In this document: piece by piece, positions 2,443-54,505 of the stretch
How positions within the stretch are numbered: the first letter of the stretch is position 1
How the letters are laid out: every line of letters starts with the position of its first letter
Source: a virus
Virus record (IMG/VR): IMGVR_UViG_3300009164_000001
Location: 19,557 to 83,556 of that record
Strand: one strand, 5' to 3'
DNA: 64,000 bases
Program-made: the position numbers and the translations under genes
Notes under the pieces: model-generated
The model's input: the letters and a program-made list of their open reading frames with translations, nothing else
Told to the model about the DNA's origin: nothing
Databases searched by the model: none

Positions 2443-5400
2443 TTATTTTGGGTTACAAATTTCTTGTATGTTCTCTCCAGAGGTATCTAAATTAGATATC
2501 ATGCTCTCTAAGGATTGATTTCCCATTGCAGCTAGCATGTCATCTGGTAAAGCACTCATATCTACTGCCCCACCTCCCATTGAAACTACTTTCATTCCTC
2601 CAGTTGTAGTTTGTGAAGTTACAACATTTTTCTTACTTCCAAAGAATGCAGAGTTTGTTTTTGGAGCCACAAGCCCATCAGTGCTTGCTACTACTGGTGT
2701 AGCTGCAGGTGGCCCAGGTACAGTTGGTGTAACAGGAGCTGCAGGTGTAGTTGGAGCAGGTGCTGATGGAGTTGACGGAGCTGCAGGACCTTGAGGGCCT
2801 GAACCTTTAATCATTCCTTCAACTCTTGGTGCATACGATACAGGAATTCCAGGTCTATTAAATAAAGATGTAATATTTCCATCTGCATCATAATTTATTT
2901 CAAAAGGCATAATGCCTAATTTTTTAACACTAAGTCCAAGCATCTTATTAAATAAATAAGCATACCCAGAGACTTGAAGCTGATGTTTTTCTTTTTTGCT
3001 AAGTTGCCCTGGAGCAAAAGATCGAGAATAGCTTTCCCAACTTTTTAACTTGCTAGTTTTAACATCGTAGATCATGTAGTTACCATCTTTGTCGACAGCT
3101 AAGATGTCAATCTCTCCTGCTACTTTAGAAACTTTATCATAGACTACAAGATTTCTAGTTATATATCTTCCACCTACAGCATCTAATTCTTTCTTGATTT
3201 TGTTAAGCTTTGTCATAAGCATATTAAATGCTCCTTCAGAGATCCCCTCAGGTCTTGTAGTATCACCTTCATCAAAGAATCTTTTAACAATTTCGTCCAC
3301 AGTGTTTCCAGCAACTCTGCTATTTTCGTATAAAGCAGGGTCTCCAGTAAAATCATCAGGAAGAACATTAGTCATACGTTTGTATAACTCTCCATCAATG
3401 ATGTAGAATTGCTCGTCTGCTGTTTTACCTTCTACAAGCTTTTGAGATTCTGCTAGTAAAGTCTCAATGTCAACTGCATTACTAGGGGCTGCTGGAACTA
3501 CTGGAGTTGCGGCCGGAGTAGAAGAAGTTTTAGGGAGTGCAGTAGTTACTACAGAGTTTGCAGCAACGTCAGCAGCTTTTTCAGCTGTAGCTCCTTTAAC
3601 ACCTACTGGGCCAAACTTCATATTAACATCATGGAATACAGATCCGTTTGCATTTGGAACTGTATCTACTGCTAAGATTGAATTGTGTCCCACTCCTTCT
3701 GTTCTAGCTTCTCCTGCAAATTGAGCAGAGTCAGAAAGGTACTGCATGTAAGGATGAGTCTTTCCGTCTTCGTAAGGATAAACAGTTCCATCAATTGGGC
3801 TAGTGAATGGCTCGTTAACTCCAAATTTAAATTTATCTACTTGATATTTTTTAGACATCGTAGCCTCTTTAAATTCATCACCAACGTTGTTTTCTACAAC
3901 TCCATAATCTGCAGGTTCTTTTTTAACAGCTGTGAATTTGATAAATCCTTGGTCGTTGACTTCAGATTCTATGAAACTAAATTTAGGCCTGCTTCCATTT
4001 AAAGCTGCCTTCATTTCACTAGCATTTATTTTTATAAGGCTATTTGCAGATTTAGAATAGAATATAAATATTGTTTGCCCATCTTCTAACTGGTATGTAG
4101 ATATAAATTTAGTTAAACTATCAGGACGTTTAAGTTCTTCTGCAAGAGACTTATCTGTTATAGCTACTTCATCAGACTCTGATTTAGCTTCTACCTCAAG
4201 TAAGTTACAACCTACAATCTGGCCGTACTTATATGCCTCAGGAATTTCTTTGGTGATGTGGTTAAGTGCAGCTGTTGCTCCTCTTGTATCCATATCTTTT
4301 GTACTGGCCATAACCATTACAGGAGTACCATCTGGAGACTCAACTAATACAGCAATTTGTCCTGGAGTAACTCCGGTTGATTCTGGGTCGGCCGGATCAC
4401 GAGGGAATGGACGAGACCCAGTTGCAATAACTTCTGCATTACCTTCTTCAGAATCATGCATTACTTTCCAAACTAAATCACCATTCTCACTACCTACATA
4501 GAATAATGTTGGAGTAGGCTGCTTTGTGATCTTAGTCACAGGGTAGAAGAACACTTTTCCAGAAGAAGTTCTAGCATTACTTATCTCAGAAGTATCATTG
4601 AACTTTTCCATTACACTTACTGTAGGAGTAAACCCATCTAAGAAGTGCTGTACAATTTCACGACGTTTGTTTCCTTTAAATCCTTCTGGACTATCTTCTT
4701 TATATGCAGCCAATAATTGAAGACGTGTACCATCAGGAAGAGCTGCATAGATTGGAACGTTTTTCCAACCAACAGTCATCATCCACTCTTTAAACTTTTC
4801 TGGGTCAGTAGCTGTATCACTTACTTCTGCTTCATTAGGAATCTGGCTTTTAAACCAGTCAGTATCTATTGCTACAATTAAATCTAACGTAGTTCCAACT
4901 GGGACCATTTCTGAACTAGTCAAATGTTCTGGGAACATTAGCACAGTAGAACCTTCAATTGTTTGCCCCATTTGACCACGTAGAGCTGGGTCATAGCCTG
5001 GCATATCTTTTTTAGGGGCTTCAGTTCTAGTCTGGCCATTAAGGTCTACTAAAACTTTTCCATTCTTTTTAACAACGGTTCCTTTTGCTAATTGAATATC
5101 ATTAGCTTCTCCAGACACAACTGCTTTTGGGGCACCTGGATCCTCAGTAGGGGCTTCAAATACAGGATCACCTGCACCCATTCTTAGGACATCTTCAGCA
5201 AGTAAAGCTTCTTCTTTAGCTTTTCTTATAGCTTCGGCTTCTTCATTGGTGATGGAGCCATCCATCCCTTCCGACGTAAGTCCTGCTGCAGGGTCGATAT
5301 CCGCTGCTTGAGGCTCTTGCCCTTCAGGAGTAGAGCTAGGTCCTGCGGTACTGTCACCGTTTTGATTACGTTTCTCAAGTTCTCTTTGCTCATTGACTTC

Positions 5401-8400
5401 GTTTATTATGTTTTGTTGTCTTGTTATCTGTCCTTTCTTAGCAGAAATTTTTCTATCAGTAGCTAATTTAGAGTTTTTTGCAGCATCTACATCTTGTTCT
5501 CCATAAACACCGTCAATAATTTTTTGGTACTCATTGGATAAGTCTTCAAGCCTAGCTTTTTCTTTAGTTAATTCTTGAATTTTTGCATCAGCTGTAGCAA
5601 TAATAGTGTTATATTCTATTTCTGTAGGAGATAATTCAATTTCCTCTTTAGCATCTAATCCTGCTTTTTCAGCAGCTTTCATTTTGCCTAGAACTTTGAT
5701 CTTCTTTTTAAGAAGGTCATTCATTCTTTTTCTAAGTTCTAATAACTGTGCAACTTGTGCATCAGCTTTAAACTCTTTCATGCTAAAGCCGGCCTCAAGT
5801 GCAACAGCTCTTTCCATTGCAAGAACCTCATCAAGTTCTTGAAGATCTTGTTTGATTAACTCTACTTGATATCGAAGTTCATCCATGCTCAGACCTGCCG
5901 TCTTTGACATGTCTTTCATTTCTTTTTGCAGAGTATCTTCTTTAGCTAAGATTTCTTCAGTATCAGTGATTAAGTTTTCAGCTATTACAGCAATGTTTTC
6001 TTTAGACTCTTCTAAGGTAGTAGTATCAGTCTCTGATATTGGACGAATCTTAGAAGCTTGCAATAAAAGATTGTATGCAAGTAATGTAGCAATTGCTGTT
6101 TCTCTTTCTATAGCAGCATTAGTTGCATCGGCCTGAGCTTCAGCTGCAATTTGAGCAGCCTCTCCAGGTTTCATTACTACTCCAGTTGACAGCTGAGTCT
6201 CTTGATAATCCTGTGGATTAACGTTAGCTACAGGGACAGTTGCTTCTTGTATTTTCCAAGTAACTTCATTTCCAGTTTGCCAGTCAGTAAGTTTTACTCC
6301 TACTACTTCTCCAGCATCATCTAGAATTAAAGCTTCTACTGGGTCAGCACTCTCCATGTAGTATTGCCTTCCATCAATATTAAATTGAGTTCCGTTTGGA
6401 GAAACCATTATCTCATCCAACAGAGTTTGCTCCATTTCAGACAGATTGACAAGTCCTGCACTTTCCCCTCCAACAGTTTTAAATTCTTTTTCAGATTTAA
6501 GTTGATCGGGAGTAAGTCCTTTTTTTCTAGCTTCTTCAGTTTTAGCCTCCATTGCTTTCATCAATGCCGATTGAGACATTGCATCTAAGCTTTCCATGTC
6601 AATAGTTTTTAGATCTTCTAAATCCATTGTCATGTACTGAGCAATCTTAGCTTTTTCTTCAGTTTCAAGTTGAGCACGTCTCTCTAAAGCAGCAGCTTTA
6701 ACTTCTGGAGAAGCATCTGGATCCACAGCATCTGTAAGATCGTCTGCAGTTTCTGCTCCTGCAATTGCTTGTTTAGCTCTATCTTCTGCAGCTCTCTTCT
6801 GTTCTTGTTCCTGCAAAGCCATTTGAGCTTCTACGTACAAATCCATTTGTTCTGGATTACGAGACAAGTTTTTAAATGCCTCTGAAAGACCTGCACGTTT
6901 GATTGACAGGTCACGAAGGTGAAGTAATTCAGCTTTAAACTCATCAGCAGTTGCTACATCTAGTTCTGATTTAGCAGCATAGATTTCGTTAAGTTGTTTA
7001 CCAAGATCCTCTTTAGGTTTAGCAGAAGCTGTTGTTTTAAATGATGGATTACCATTTGAATCAAGTTCTACTCCCCCAACTTTGATCTGGAACTTCACTT
7101 CATCTGGATCTAGTTTTGCTAGAGCTGGAGCAAGCTGTACAAGTCTATCATATTGCTCGTCAATTCTACTATCAATAGTATCAATGTCAAGAAGATTGTG
7201 AGTTAAGATTTGTCCGTAAGTTCTACGTACAGCATCTTGAATCAGTTTGTTCTTTTTAGTTTCTTCTGTTTGAAGCCCTTCTTTAATCTTAGCCACTAGT
7301 GATGTACCAGGGTTAAACTGTGAAAGGATGTTGTGCACCTGCTCTGAACGTTTGATAGCAGATTGCATTTTAGTTTTTGTGTCCTCAATGATTTGCATCT
7401 GAGTTTTACCAGTCTGCTGCTCAAGAGTACGATTCATGTCATAACCAAAAGCTTGCTTGAATTCTTTTTCCTCCATTGCAGCAGCATCATCAAACTGCTC
7501 CATTGCATAATCGATTGCCCCTAACCCATTCATCTTAGCAAAGACTCCATGGATTAATCTCATACGAGCTGTTTCAGCTTTTAAATCGTTTTGACGTCTT
7601 TCAGCTTTTGTAATTCCTTCTCTTTCATTGTCAAGATTAGCATCATTAATGTCTTTGATAAATGCTAAGTTCTCAGCACTTTGCTCTGCATTCTCGATAA
7701 TTTTCTTAATAGCCCCTGAGTTAAGCATTTTTATAGCTTCAGTAGTATTAAGTCCTTTTTGAGCAAGAAGTTTTTTCTCAGCTCCCATAAGACGACTTAC
7801 TGCTCCGGTACCACCTCCGACTAATGCTCCAATCAATATGTTCTCTAAACCTTCTTTAGTCCCTATAGTCGATGACAATGCTTTGCTCATTGCAGAAGCC
7901 ATGTCTCCTGTACCATCGTTAAATTTTTCTCCGTAGTAGTTACGTGCATATTGAGACCCAGCAAACTGGCTGGCCTCTTGGAAACCTTCTTCAGCAGAAG
8001 TTTTAAGTACAGGCCCAAATGTTTTTTGTGCTCTACCATAAGCTTTTCCAAACTTAGAGCTTGCAGCTTTTTCAACCCATTCTTCCCCTGCAGTTAACCC
8101 TTTCTTCTCAATGTCGTACATTGTTTTTTCCCCAACACGGGCACCCTGCATTGCTTTACCAAACATCAATAAGTTTGTAGCAGTTAAAAGAGGAAGGTTA
8201 ATAGCAAACGTAGTATTACCTACAGCATTAGCACTTTGCAAAATACCGTCTTCTACATCTTTTGGCATAACCTGACCGGGGTTTTGCTCTTCCCACTCTG
8301 CTTTACGTTCTTCAATAAATGAGTTTTTAGCTTCACGAGCTTCAACAGAAGATTCAGCTAATGACATTTGAGTTCCAACTGCTAGGTGTTTTGTAGCAGT

Positions 8401-51097: not shown

Positions 51098-51103
51098 AAC
51101 ATT

Positions 51104-51494
51104 AACCAACAGCATTGAGGTCTGATTTATCTACATAAGTCTTTCGACTGATATGTTGTTGGTTTGTATTAATGCATCATTCCAACTTCACAAGGGTTGG
51201 CAGTTAATAGTATCACCATACCTCAGGTTGCTAGAAAAGAACCAAACTAGCAGGGCAAGAAAGTTGGGACTATTAACTGAATGCAGAGTGGTACAACATT
51301 GCAGTATTTATCTCGAATCCTCAAGAAAAGTTATAGTAGAGATAATTATTCGTGCACAGAATAGACTGTTATAAGAACGGAATAAACCATCATGAAGGGT
51401 TTGTCTGCTGCAATGTTATTTAATTTTACAATAGAAAGGACGTGATATTCGTCGTATTCCTAGGCATGAAGACAAACTGCCTTATATATTGTAA
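51104..51494 (+). ncRNA. Array of four multi-stem structured RNA elements
   Basis: Long closing stems 51104-115/51153-164, 51201-211/51269-279, 51295-305/51407-417 and 51426-433/51487-494, each with internal hairpins. Confidence 0.55.
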
Positions 51495-51515
51495 TCAATT
51501 AACCTATAAATAATC

Positions 51516-51728
51516 ATGAAAAAATCAACTGCTTATGTGCTGCTTTACTTTGCAGCAATCTTATCGATAGCTATGCTATCATCATGTAATGCACATTCTA
51601 TTGCCACTAGAGATAACAAGACTAATCCTTGTTTCTATGATGATGGTAGTGGTACAATAAAACCTAAGAACTCAACATACAGAGTTACAGAACGTTACAA
51701 CTTTGCTAATCCATTAAAACAAGATTAA
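51516..51728 (+). CDS. Putative lipoprotein
   Basis: MKK, hydrophobic stretch, LSSC lipobox. Confidence 0.6.
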   Translation: MKKSTAYVLLYFAAILSIAMLSSCNAHSIATRDNKTNPCFYDDGSGTIKPKNSTYRVTERYNFANPLKQD

Positions 51729-51730
51729 TC

Positions 51731-51943
51731 ATGAGACGACAATTCAAACAAGTTATCCGTGGTACAGCAGAATTAGCTGTTGTATTCACAATGATCTTTG
51801 TAGTTCCAGCATTACTTGCTGCGTTAGTAAACTTTAATATTGATGTGTACTTCAGTTGTGTACATCATGCAGCTTATGATGCAGTAATGTCTATCATTGG
51901 AATTATCTTCTGTTTAGTGTATACATCAATGTATCAAGACTAA
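51731..51943 (+). CDS. Small membrane protein
   Basis: Two hydrophobic segments. Confidence 0.55.
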   Translation: MRRQFKQVIRGTAELAVVFTMIFVVPALLAALVNFNIDVYFSCVHHAAYDAVMSIIGIIFCLVYTSMYQD

Positions 51944-52128
51944 TGAAGAAGTTTAAGTATCACATTCAACTCCATTGGTATTGGGAGGATAGAATATTTA
52001 TATTCATTCCTACCATTGCCTTTGGTGCTTGTTTACCAGAATATGATGATTCATATTGGCTGGCATTCATGTTTGGGCCTATGAGACTAGGCTTCAAACT
52101 AGTAGATAATAATATAACACAAGAATAA
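51943..52128 (+). CDS. Hypothetical protein
   Basis: TAATG stop/start coupling. Confidence 0.55.
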   Translation: MKKFKYHIQLHWYWEDRIFIFIPTIAFGACLPEYDDSYWLAFMFGPMRLGFKLVDNNITQE

Positions 52129-52130
52129 TT

Positions 52131-52352
52131 ATGGCAGAATTATCAATCAACAAACTCGATGATGGTATCACTGAACTCATAGTAAAATTTGAGGACAGAA
52201 GAGATAAGCCTTGGTTACCAAAAGACAGAGTTCATTTACCTCATTTTGTTAAAGATGAGGAAGGTAAACTGCTTGAAAGAGTTAAAGAAAGAGGAGTAAA
52301 CATTGCTCCTTGCACGTTTTCATTTAAGTATAAATTATGCATAAAGTCGTAA
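52131..52352 (+). CDS. Hypothetical protein
   Basis: Packed ORF. Confidence 0.55.
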   Translation: MAELSINKLDDGITELIVKFEDRRDKPWLPKDRVHLPHFVKDEEGKLLERVKERGVNIAPCTFSFKYKLCIKS

Positions 52353-52498
52353 GATATTATGCACACAGTGATGTTCAACGTAACATCATTGACAAAGAAG
52401 ATGTAATTACCATTGATGGTAAAAAGTATCTTAGAGGTGATGTACAACTCATCGAAAGACCTCTCATTAGAGTAGAGTTTCATTTAATGGAACTATAA
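52337..52498 (+). CDS. Hypothetical 53-aa protein
   Basis: Hand translation MHKVVRYYAHSDVQ...HLMEL. Confidence 0.45.
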   Translation: MHKVVRYYAHSDVQRNIIDKEDVITIDGKKYLRGDVQLIERPLIRVEFHLMEL

Positions 52499-52569
52499 CA
52501 AAATCACCTAAGCAAGTGTTGAAACTGCTTTCAAATTTGGATTTAATCATAAATCAACATATAAAAATC

Positions 52570-53175
52570 ATGAGTAACACTCTAAACAGCGGTTCATTGG
52601 CAGGTTTGTCAATGAATAGCACCTTGTTAGTCCAAGCTAGGAAAGTGAATGGACAAAAATTGCAGTTGGAATTTGCTGAGGTTCTTCAAAAAGAATCTAA
52701 TCAGTCAGTTAATCCACTTGCTATGTTTAATGCAGGTGATGACCGTTTCTCTCAAACAGGAGGAGCTCGTCGTGCTTGGTTAACAGTAGAAGCGAAAGCT
52801 GCTACGACATTGTTAGGCATTGACTTGTCTGATAACAATGATGCTTGGACTATTGATGCAATGGGACGTGAAGTTCTTCCATTGAATGTTCTTAACCCAG
52901 TAGCTATTGTTAATGGGGAAGAAATTCCATTGAAGGTAGAAGTTGCAGAGACTACTCAGCCTACTGAGTATCAGTTGAACAACATCGAAACCTCTGCTAA
53001 ACGTAGAGGTAAAGATGGTGCTTATTGCACACATCAAGGTCTGTATATCTTTGCTAACACACGTATGGCTTTCCACAAAGCTAATCACGTATTCTTAGCA
53101 ATGGATGCAGTCGAGACAAAGACTACAGGTATACCAGCTGGTATCTCTGCAGCAACAGGAGAAATCTTTAACTAA
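52570..53175 (+). CDS. Hypothetical protein, apparently highly expressed
   Basis: Likely ATG at 52570 after an A-rich leader; followed by a strong hairpin. Confidence 0.65.
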   Translation: MSNTLNSGSLAGLSMNSTLLVQARKVNGQKLQLEFAEVLQKESNQSVNPLAMFNAGDDRFSQTGGARRAWLTVEAKAATTLLGIDLSDNNDAWTIDAMGREVLPLNVLNPVAIVNGEEIPLKVEVAETTQPTEYQLNNIETSAKRRGKDGAYCTHQGLYIFANTRMAFHKANHVFLAMDAVETKTTGIPAGISAATGEIFN

Positions 53176-53214
53176 TTTTTCGATTTGATTAGTATAAAAG
53201 ATCGCTGTTAAACA

Positions 53215-53249
53215 AAAAGTGCCTAGGGGAGAAATCTCTTAGGCATTTT
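53215..53249 (+). terminator. Terminator-like hairpin
   Basis: AAAAGTGCCTAGGGGA-GAAA-TCTCTTAGGCATTTT. Confidence 0.65.
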
Positions 53250-53302
53250 AATGTACCATTCTTAGTTCCCAAGGCTAAGCAGTAACTACTGAGTACAGAG
53301 GG
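53249..53302 (+). ncRNA. Twister-like self-cleaving ribozyme candidate
   Basis: U|AA, P2 UGUA/UACA, P4 CUUAG/CUAAG with loop UUCCCAAGG, P5 hairpin, GAGGG; both pseudoknots can pair. Confidence 0.6.
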
Positions 53303-53317
53303 TTAGGTTAATGATTA

Positions 53318-53377
53318 GGCAAGTAGTACCATAGGAGAGTTGGCAATGCTCTCTTATGGCTACTGACTTGTTTTTTT
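53318..53377 (+). terminator. Long imperfect hairpin followed by a U-tract
   Basis: GGCAAGT-AGTA-CCATAGGAGAGT pairs with GCTCTCTTATGG-TACT-ACTTGTT, then TTTTT. Confidence 0.5.
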
Positions 53378-53425
53378 ATAGCAAAGATTTAATTACTAAT
53401 AAACACAATTTAAAACCAAACAATT

Positions 53426-53809
53426 ATGAAGAAAATCGTTTTTGCATTTATGTTGCTTGCTAATGTAGCAATTGCACAACCATCAGTAATTCACGGAGTT
53501 TCATTACAAACTGCTGAACTTAATGAACAAATTGATGGAGAATACACATGGAATAAAAGAATTCCTATGGATTTTGTTGTTATCATGCACAGAGACACAA
53601 TCATTATGAATTATCCTTATCAAGTTAAAACTTACTTAACTAGCGATTATAAAGAAATTGATGATGATACAGATGGATGGAAAGCAATAGATGAATCTGG
53701 TAACAATTGCTGGATATATTTAATAAGTTTTTTAGATGCAACATTCTTACGAATAGAATATGCAGATCGTGCATATTACGTAGAGCTTCAAGAGTATGAT
53801 TTAGAGTAA
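53426..53809 (+). CDS. Secreted/periplasmic hypothetical protein
   Basis: MKKIVFAFMLLANVAIA-Q signal peptide. Confidence 0.65.
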   Translation: MKKIVFAFMLLANVAIAQPSVIHGVSLQTAELNEQIDGEYTWNKRIPMDFVVIMHRDTIIMNYPYQVKTYLTSDYKEIDDDTDGWKAIDESGNNCWIYLISFLDATFLRIEYADRAYYVELQEYDLE

Positions 53810-54090
53810 TAGATAGCGTTAGGTAGAAATACCTGATGCTGTTTGTATTATCTTGCAAGATAATAATCACGACAATAGCTCCGTTGATCAGGAGATCGTA
53901 AAACACAGTAACTCCTCTGATTTATCATGAAACTGTTCTCATCGTATAGGAGATAGAGTTAGCCTACTCGACGTCGTTTAAAAAGGCAAAACTATTAGTA
54001 AACTTTAGTACCCGTTCTGAGGACGTAGGGCTAAGTAAGATACAATTCCGTCATGCAGGGAGTAGAATGCTAAAGAGCTAATAGTAAAAT

Positions 54091-54272
54091 AGTCAGGTGG
54101 CGGAATATCAATCGCGTGCGTGTGAGCTAAATAGAATGGCTAAGACCCATCGCGGGATTGATTTGGTAGACGCTAAGTGAGTTCAAACGTGTCACTGTTT
54201 AATTCAGTGTGTAGGTCGCAGGTAGGATAGTCTGCCACAATGAACGTACAGGTTCGAATCCTGTCCTGACTA
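54091..54272 (+). ncRNA. tRNA-like RNA 1 (Leu-type D-arm) with expanded D-loop and anticodon/variable region
   Basis: Acceptor AGTCAGG/CCTGACT, D-arm GCGGAAT[56 nt]TTGGTAGACGC, T-arm ACAGG-TTCGAAT-CCTGT; no encoded CCA. Confidence 0.75.
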
Positions 54273-54388
54273 CGAGGGGTGGTAACCATTTCAACAGCCC
54301 TAATAGATAGGAGGAAAAGCTTTTAGGAAGCAAGTCCAAGTTGATGGCCAAAATGTGGATGGTGACAGACGGGGAAAGACCCGTACAT

Positions 54389-54505
54389 AGTAGAGTAGTG
54401 TATTGGTACATCGGATGGTTATAGCACCGATAGCAAAAAAGCATCTGAACAAGATGTGGTCACTGTAATGGCAGCTACATAAGGGTTCGAATCCCTTCTC
54501 TTCTT
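54389..54505 (+). ncRNA. tRNA-like RNA 2 with extended anticodon and variable arms
   Basis: Acceptor AGTAGAG/CTCTTCT (6 of 7 pairs), D-arm GTGT-ATTGGT-ACAT, T-arm AAGGG-TTCGAAT-CCCTT. Confidence 0.65.

Follow-up and report, generated by a model that had tools for sequence, protein, structure and literature searches.

The element described here lies in a 64,000-nt stretch of viral DNA (the window), in a 250-nt gap between a gene at 52570–53175 and another at 53426–53809, all on the + strand. The window comes from a distant crAss-like lake phage; its genome carries direct terminal repeats and its DNA polymerase is nearest to those of crAss-like phages, with 27–30% identity. The upstream gene, in whose 3′ UTR the element is found, codes for a 201-aa protein with 171 metagenome relatives. 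Neither this protein nor its neighbours could be assigned a function from Pfam, PHROGs or the ESM Atlas. Assembled metatranscriptome contigs cover 52555–53205 (X1) and 51191–51308 (X4, part of a second copy of the element), and none of them spans 53240–53924. The features of the locus are the following:

51170–51290, + strand: second copy of the same variant, found by descriptor search, with T1 CAC/GUG, P2 UGCAU/AUGCA and a P5 insert of about 80 nt
52570–53175, + strand: upstream gene, 201-aa protein, from the ORF list
53217–53248, + strand: upstream hairpin of 14 bp with a GAAA loop (53231–34); its last pair, A53217–U53248, abuts U53249; P0-like, at the place of the P1 5′ strand
53249–53251, + strand: predicted cleavage site U53249/A53250, then A53251 (L1 5′ strand: N-1, the general acid A1, and A2); aligns with 'UAA' of the Rfam twister-P1 consensus
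53252–53256, + strand: P2 5′ strand UGUAC, partner 53293–53297
53256–53257, + strand: candidate T2 5′ strand CC, partners G53274 and G53273; C53256 is common to the fifth P2 pair
53261–53265, + strand: P4 5′ strand CUUAG
53266–53274, + strand: L4 UUCCCAAGG, made of the extra U, U, T1 strand CCC (53268–70), AA (53271–72) and T2 strand GG (53273–74)
53275–53279, + strand: P4 3′ strand CUAAG
53280–53291, + strand: P5 hairpin CAGU-AACU-ACUG, stem CAGU (53280–83) with ACUG (53288–91)
53293–53297, + strand: P2 3′ strand GUACA (UACA, 53294–97)
53298–53302, + strand: GAGGG, with the candidate general base G53298, A53299 and T1 3′ strand GGG (53300–302); identical to 'GAGGG' of the Rfam consensus
53323–53377, + strand: terminator-like long hairpin (53323–53365) followed by UUGUUUUUUU, from sequence and fold

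The element comprises 54 bases and reads U/AA, UGUA(C), C, AUU, P4 (CUUAG, UUCCCAAGG, CUAAG), P5, A, (G)UACA and GAGGG. Every feature listed in the original prediction, namely U53249 followed by AA, P2, the CC/GG pairing, P4, CCC/GGG, the loop AA and P5, can be read directly from the sequence at the positions given above. Their order, with CC/GG instead of the usual GC/GC, was said to be that of the twister core, and it agrees with the Rfam twister-P1 consensus, as do the key bases (from the alignment, ccuu UAA cgCc GC [P3] cCG GUCCCAAGCC CGg UAAA gGcg GAGGG aagg). The two deviations that had been pointed out, one extra U in L4 and the lack of P1, are also present, with 0 consecutive P1 pairs in this copy. 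Compared with GUCCCAAGCC of the Rfam consensus and CCGGTCCCAAGCCCGG of the rice twister (PMC11662667), L4 keeps the form U-T1-A-A-T2 with the additional U. All the core bases kept across the variant family described below are intact, and the P5 is the shortest among the 131 unique copies of the matches listed. As the prediction had stated, P1 is dispensable in minimal twisters according to published work (PMC11662667, PMC6154101), and P1, P2 and P4 may also be imperfect (PMC11662667).

The hairpin that ends at the predicted cleavage site had been described as a terminator. The hairpin stands, and the 45 nt upstream of the cut site fold with −19.2 kcal/mol, but it is terminator-like and not a clear terminator, because just four U follow. 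Measured against the definition of an intrinsic terminator, a G+C-rich hairpin with a run of at least five U behind it, 53217–53248 falls short: it offers only UUUU, three of them in the stem, followed by AAUG, and it is absent from the terminator scan. The stronger terminator-like hairpin is the one after the ribozyme, which is also absent from the simple scan, having a loop of 9 nt.

The search with twister covariance models that had been proposed as a check gave no Rfam match, even at E ≤ 10. At this threshold, the 351 nt and 73 nt around the element contained no twister, only chance matches to snoRNAs, and no match to hammerhead, twister-sister, pistol, hatchet, HDV-like or hairpin ribozymes. 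Rfam 15 at gathering thresholds had no match in the window, the twister type P1 model (RF03160) found nothing in the whole 83.5-kb phage genome, and the 53249–53302 copy gets no score against the gathering cut-off of that model, 67.2 bits. Searching with blastn for the region and for a typical family copy among GenBank phages yielded no real match, and an exact 37-mer search across viral contigs yielded nothing. The fold energy of the element alone is no better than that of shuffles (z +1.14), a value that is uninformative because the RNA is pseudoknotted. Taken alone, the catalogue failures and the unremarkable fold energy would suggest a chance resemblance.

The relatives of the element give a different picture. 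They were fetched via the 201-aa upstream protein, which yielded one viral contig and 80 metagenome loci, and blastn of the intergenic region against them located the two motif halves in many of these loci, at differing positions and with varying spacing. A scan of IMG/VR with the 5′-half pattern AATGYAYCAN{7,8}TTCMCAAGG found at least 119 contigs. The predicted 3′ half was defined for each match as the reverse complement of its own P2, then GA, then the reverse complement of its own T1 triplet, and among the matches listed this exact 3′ half is found at most 450 nt downstream of 141 of the 149 5′ halves that have a complementary P4. The T1 variants CCC/GGG, CAC/GUG, CCA/UGG, GCC/GGC and UCC/GGA each come with the matched partner, again among the matches listed. 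Altogether, more than 140 copies of the core were found in uncultured phage contigs and in lake or marine metagenomes; they are intergenic (1 of 131 lies within a long ORF), on the same strand as the neighbouring genes, and their P5 inserts range from 14 to 314 nt. Rfam, run on 18 loci with family copies, had no twister match at the copies themselves.

Cellular genomes served as a control. Among the viral loci, 130 matches to the 5′-half pattern include 124 with a complementary P4 and 119 with the exact 3′ half, versus 9 and 7, respectively, of the 121 pattern matches found in 596 Gb of bacterial and archaeal genomes (Fisher p = 1e-48). Therefore, the 5′-half pattern alone is chance-prone, and the complete element is practically confined to phage DNA. 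The bacterial and archaeal matches, mostly due to chance, pointed to no reliable host. A covariance model built from the variant family (R1, whose E-values are rough) detects two copies only in the window and the whole genome, with 88.6 bits (51170–51290) and 72.9 bits (53249–53302, a score to be read in the light of this copy being part of the training set). A weak R1 match at 4421–4472 of the window on the − strand (UAAUGCAUGAUU..AAUGCAGAAGU; 13.5 bits, E 0.29) may be a remnant or chance.

Covariation was assessed in an alignment (A2) of 121 distinct copies among the matches listed, counting the structure with P1, P2, P4, P5, T1 and one T2 pair. The copies were chosen by P2 and T1 complementarity and many columns are fixed by the search patterns, so that invariance in A2 is partly by construction. 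Paired cells amount to 89.8%, against 75% in shuffles, none of which (0/500) reaches 89.8%; when the partners are slid, the value falls to 30–50%. In P4, all five pairs covary and 99.7% of the cells are paired. The base of P5 covaries as well (e.g. GC 79, AU 17), and P1, with 63% of its cells paired, has both-sided changes at all six positions; a P1 of at least 4 bp is found in 59 of 131 family copies versus 15% in the control, among the matches listed. P2 contains two covarying pairs, of which 15/215 is CG in 99 copies, UA in 22 and unpaired in none. The T1 pairs, present as CG, AU, GC and UA, are paired in 100% of the cells, the T1 match having been a collection criterion. Because P2 and T1 were both selection criteria for A2, their independent support is the recovery of the 141 of 149 exact 3′ halves. 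The N-1 base is U in 114 of the 121 copies of the family among the matches listed.

The second covarying pair of P2 involves columns 17/213, which correspond to C53256 and G53293 and were unselected by the search; they are CG in 91 copies of A2, UA in 30 and unpaired in none. Therefore P2 seems to have 5 bp (or a base triple at this point), in competition with the first T2 pair. As for the proposal that CC/GG forms T2, CC 53256–57 can pair with GG 53273–74 and these bases are near-invariant, with C17, C18, G35 and G36 kept in 63 of 65 copies gathered by the 3′ half only; on the other side, C53256 covaries with G53293 and may extend P2 instead, and no covariation of T2 was seen. The near-invariance is compatible with T2 and no proof of it. 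A T2 5′ strand is canonically 'NC', with 'GN' as its partner in L4 (PMC11662667), so that CC is within the known range. The pair 17/213 predicts structural variation at the P2/T2 junction of a well-studied fold.

A link to accepted twisters is provided by related loci in which Rfam twister-P1 does find matches: L087 at 2047–2112 on the − strand (59.5 bits), L081 at 572–623 (56.7 bits), and L013, L030, L003 and L004 (44–50 bits). Their E-values lie between 3e-7 and 3e-13, and none of the six reaches the 67.2-bit cut-off. R1 matches the same six elements with 22–26 bits (E about 1e-3), and all of them are neighbours of the gene homologous to that of the 201-aa protein; in L004, L003, L030 and L013 the gene begins at most about 100 nt further downstream. 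Their sequence is UAA-UGCA-[A/G]C-(P3)-P4-UCACAAG[U/C]-P4′-UAA-UGCA-GAGUG, UAAUGCA...UGCAGAGUG being common to the six, and their P2 and T1 sequences are those of the variant family. The twister identity claimed in the original prediction is thus backed by homologues, through more than 140 phage copies, the covariation of P2, P4, P5 and T1 and the relation to Rfam-detectable twisters, and a twister-class fold for 53249–53302 is very probable. As read from the aligned sequences, the family is a large phage-borne twister variant, uncatalogued relative to Rfam. Its topology is that of type P1; P3 is absent, P5 accommodates long inserts, L4 has 9 nt and P2 has an additional covarying pair. The Rfam model plausibly misses it because of six differences from the consensus, in P3, P5, L4, T2, 17/213 and P1.

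The bases of the element can be compared with those required in known twisters, of which McKinley et al. 2024 assayed about 2,600 natural examples (PMC11662667). In that work the N-1 position accepts any base, and cleavage depends strictly on A1, A2 and the G of the L1 3′ strand. Either pseudoknot is sensitive to change, wobbles excepted, and L4 may vary at its ends. Activity was seen for every twister with a P5, and an upstream P0 hairpin went with a lower mean cleavage, 0.40 vs 0.85 (PMC11662667). According to Kobori et al. (PMC4513843), more than 97% of twisters share a conserved 'GU' at the start of L4, and the CUU or UUU start found in most members of the family is a real deviation from it.

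The second copy in the window is located in a gene-free region (51098–51515), ahead of a small lipoprotein-like gene, and has a P1 of 6 bp (51164–69 with 51291–96). The P1-less arrangement of the 53249–53302 copy is found in two relatives. Locus L002, where the neighbour protein is 97% identical, has the same element, its P5 being longer by about 78 nt. In L174, whose homologue of the 201-aa protein is 63% identical, the order of gene, hairpin, UUUU/AA, P1-less ribozyme and terminator is conserved, the site after the ribozyme being occupied by a different hairpin and U-run. Between the window and L174, P2 changes from UGUA/UACA to UGCA/UGCA and P4 from CUUAG/CUAAG to CUCAG/CUGAG, both in a compensatory manner, and the upstream hairpin has compensatory C-G / U.G / U-A changes in the L002 and L174 copies. 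The layout of L174 and these compensatory changes therefore argue that the P1-less, hairpin-abutted form is maintained and is no fresh accident. The first viral-contig relative of the protein (L001, 45% identity) has a terminator-like hairpin alone after the gene, with no ribozyme.

Hairpins next to the cut site are not restricted to these loci. In the family, the 45 nt upstream of the site have a mean fold energy of −8.5 kcal/mol, versus −4.8 kcal/mol for the downstream flank, and a strong hairpin at most 3 nt from the site accompanies 15 of 56 copies with a P1 of at most 2 bp versus 3 of 59 copies with a P1 of at least 4 bp (p = 0.0017).

Several further observations concern the family. The long P5 inserts fall into conserved types, which in A2 are found in backbones with different T1, P2 and P4; common inserts are shared by L021 and L108:1163, by L022, L123:9422 and L159, by L092:7976, L136 and L175, and by L002 and L174:791. 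On sequence, these inserts look like modular cargo RNAs. Different T1 sequences within one contig occur in 10 of 18 multi-copy contigs, the lineages not being independent: the window combines CAC and CCC, L027 has CCC, CAC and CCA, L188 has CAC, CAC and CCA, and L100, L103, L108 and L116 each have CAC and CCA. Differing T1 sequences could keep neighbouring ribozymes of one transcript from mispairing.

Other copies are altered in their 5′ half. In L016 (975–1096), L019 (250–366), L009 (1–170 and 780–961), L024 (861–1007) and L007 (1172–1362) it is swapped for GCACUAACCUUAGGGUGA, P5 and the 3′ half being kept. The GCACUAACCUUAGGGUGA form has no L4, and therefore neither T1 nor T2 is possible; its recurrence in several phages suggests either shared descent from a decayed copy or a variant put to another use. 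A further 5′ half that recurs, UUAAUCAGYCUCCCAAGG, is preceded by GAUGUGAAACCACAAUGAUUAAG and a variable hairpin and followed by a normal P5 and the 3′ half GAGUGCAGAGGG (L133 8449, L327 71, L340, L343 11808, L398 2734 and L400 3274).

The surroundings of the modules are variable. When L174 (reverse strand, 7100–8090) is compared with 51516–53425 of the window, the gene that follows the module in L174 is a homologue of the 51516–51728 gene (MKKSTAY...), which in the window lies upstream of the 53249 element and after the first ribozyme copy; the order in L174 is rearranged around the modules. In some relatives, a tRNA gene follows the 201-aa gene, in the place of the ribozyme of the window (L019 1691–1769, L016 3133–3211, L013 2063–2143, L004 2244–2334 and L008 3123–3196), and in several of these tRNAs the anticodon loop is enlarged by 12–16 bases, which may be small introns. 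A 700-nt gene-free stretch is found in the window at 53810–54505 (+ strand), where spurious ORFs read 'GFEP', a hallmark of the tRNA T-arm; ARAGORN and Rfam detected no tRNA in the window. In RNA contigs from two studies, 54106 is followed directly by 54247, so that 140 nt are missing; the short side has only 20–22 nt, and this junction may stem from tRNAs of other organisms. Other RNAs beside family copies in contigs of related phages (L153 4367–4761, L019 3483–3698, L098 69–403 and L081 3302–3643) comprise a GOLLD-like RNA, a group I intron and two tmRNA genes, the GOLLD-like RNA being directly ahead of a ribozyme copy and scoring 100.8 bits, under its cut-off of 150.

Considering all these data, 53249–53302 is probably a self-cleaving twister-class ribozyme of a phage variant subfamily, and we consider it likely that this copy is active. 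Transcription past the 201-aa gene would produce the hairpin and the ribozyme, whose RNA would fold P2, P4 and P5, with L4 docking on GAGGG through T1 and on CC through T2. Cleavage would separate U53249 from A53250, G53298 and A53250 serving as catalytic bases, and would leave a 2′,3′-cyclic phosphate end on the upstream product and a 5′-OH start on the downstream one. The mRNA of the 201-aa gene would then end in the hairpin followed by UUUU>p, which would probably be stabilising, and the detached remainder, of approximately 130 nt, would contain the ribozyme and the terminator-like hairpin.

Hairpins at the 3′ end and blocked 3′ ends slow bacterial 3′ exonucleases and polyadenylation. A 3′ end set by the RNA itself would be independent of the transcribing polymerase, which suits a phage with possibly more than one RNA polymerase. 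We infer catalysis, the exact cut site, the trimming of the mRNA at its hairpin and an advantage for the phage; the benefit of such trimming is not obvious, because a terminator-like hairpin directly follows the ribozyme. Polymerase-independent formation of the 3′ end of the upstream mRNA is a role that the element might have, with a chance somewhat below even. The complete proposal is more tentative still: a natural and maintained P1-less twister with a hairpin in the place of P1, by which distant crAss-like phages would give an early mRNA, whatever the polymerase, a hairpin-capped, cyclic-phosphate 3′ end, within a very large phage-only subfamily in which one pair has moved from the pseudoknot to a helix and P5 is swappable.

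The most serious competitor to an active ribozyme, although an unlikely one, is that the family is real and this copy a relic, retired or of weak activity, acting only as a structured 3′-UTR spacer between two hairpins while termination and host RNases define the RNA ends. The absence of P1 and the shortest P5 in the family would fit a relic, as would the reduced cleavage of P0-type twisters in the published assay (PMC11662667) and the decayed copies present in relatives, L008 (734–942) with a mutated GAGGG and L016, L019, L009 and L024 without L4. However, every core base that the family keeps is intact in 53249–53302, P1 is reported to be dispensable, and the P1-less layout is kept in L002 and L174 with compensation in P2, P4 and the hairpin, which argues for selection on the fold. 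The several copies per contig at positions that vary relative to the conserved gene, the same P5 inserts in different backbones and the different gene order around the module in L174 and the window could instead reflect a role at the DNA level, as conserved joints for the recombinational exchange of gene and RNA cassettes, any ribozyme activity being secondary or selfish. This is improbable, since the compensatory changes preserve RNA pairing, including that of the pseudoknot, and so indicate selection on RNA and not on DNA identity, and the copies keep to the strand of the neighbouring genes; such a role would be compatible with RNA cleavage too.

A twister-shaped RNA without catalysis, for instance one that binds a protein or serves as a scaffold displaying the P5 insert, would account for the lack of any score from Rfam models, for the departures of T2 and L4 from the consensus and for the conserved P5 inserts of many copies. 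It is very improbable given that the bases reported as essential are conserved (A1, A2, the G of GAGGG, the AA of L4 and T1) and that Rfam-type twisters fill the same genomic niche in relatives. As for a chance resemblance in an ordinary 3′ UTR with two terminator hairpins, the motif was spotted by eye in 64 kb of sequence and its own fold energy is no better than that of shuffles, but family conservation, covariation and the cellular-genome control exclude it practically with certainty.

What twisters do for bacteria and phages is still described as elusive (PMC6765202). The fixed place of this element between hairpins, behind a conserved gene, would offer a testable role, the production of a defined and protected mRNA 3′ end without host enzymes, and 53249–53302 is a natural minimal form of 54 nt, simple to test. 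As the standard model misses this subfamily and its hundreds of copies, ribozyme counts in phage genomes are underestimated.

In comparison with type P1 twisters (RF03160), in the account of Roth et al. 2014 given in PMC6154101 and PMC11662667, the variant has the same order of N/AA, P2, T2, P4/L4, P2′ and G-A-T1′, with P5 on the 3′ side of the junction; it shares the sequences UAA, CCCAAG and GAGGG with them, and T1 covaries. It differs from them in lacking P3, which 78% of twisters have (PMC6154101), and in having a P5 in every copy, often a long one, whereas about 1% of twisters contain P5. Its L4 has 9 nt with the extra U, its T2 is CC/GG, the 17/213 pair stands where the consensus has an unpaired A, making P2 effectively 5 bp, and its P1 is often weak, and missing in the 53249–53302 copy. 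The core of the P1-less 'mini-twister' of Kosutic et al. 2015, as reported in PMC6154101 and PMC11662667, works without P1 in the same way as proposed here; that molecule is described there as a laboratory truncation, whereas here the P1-less form is natural, kept in relatives, and has an upstream hairpin one base from the cut site. Twisters with an optional P0/L0 stem-loop (PMC11662667) also carry a hairpin directly 5′ of the ribozyme, but P0 normally precedes an intact P1, and here the position of the P1 5′ strand is taken up by the hairpin. Finally, the HDV-like theta ribozymes of gut phages, found beside tRNAs (PMC10879173), are similar in being a phage-specific subfamily that processes phage RNAs and in having been discovered by context and not by a standard model. 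They belong to a different class and cut at their own 5′ edge to free a downstream tRNA, whereas the element described here would define the 3′ end of the RNA upstream of it.
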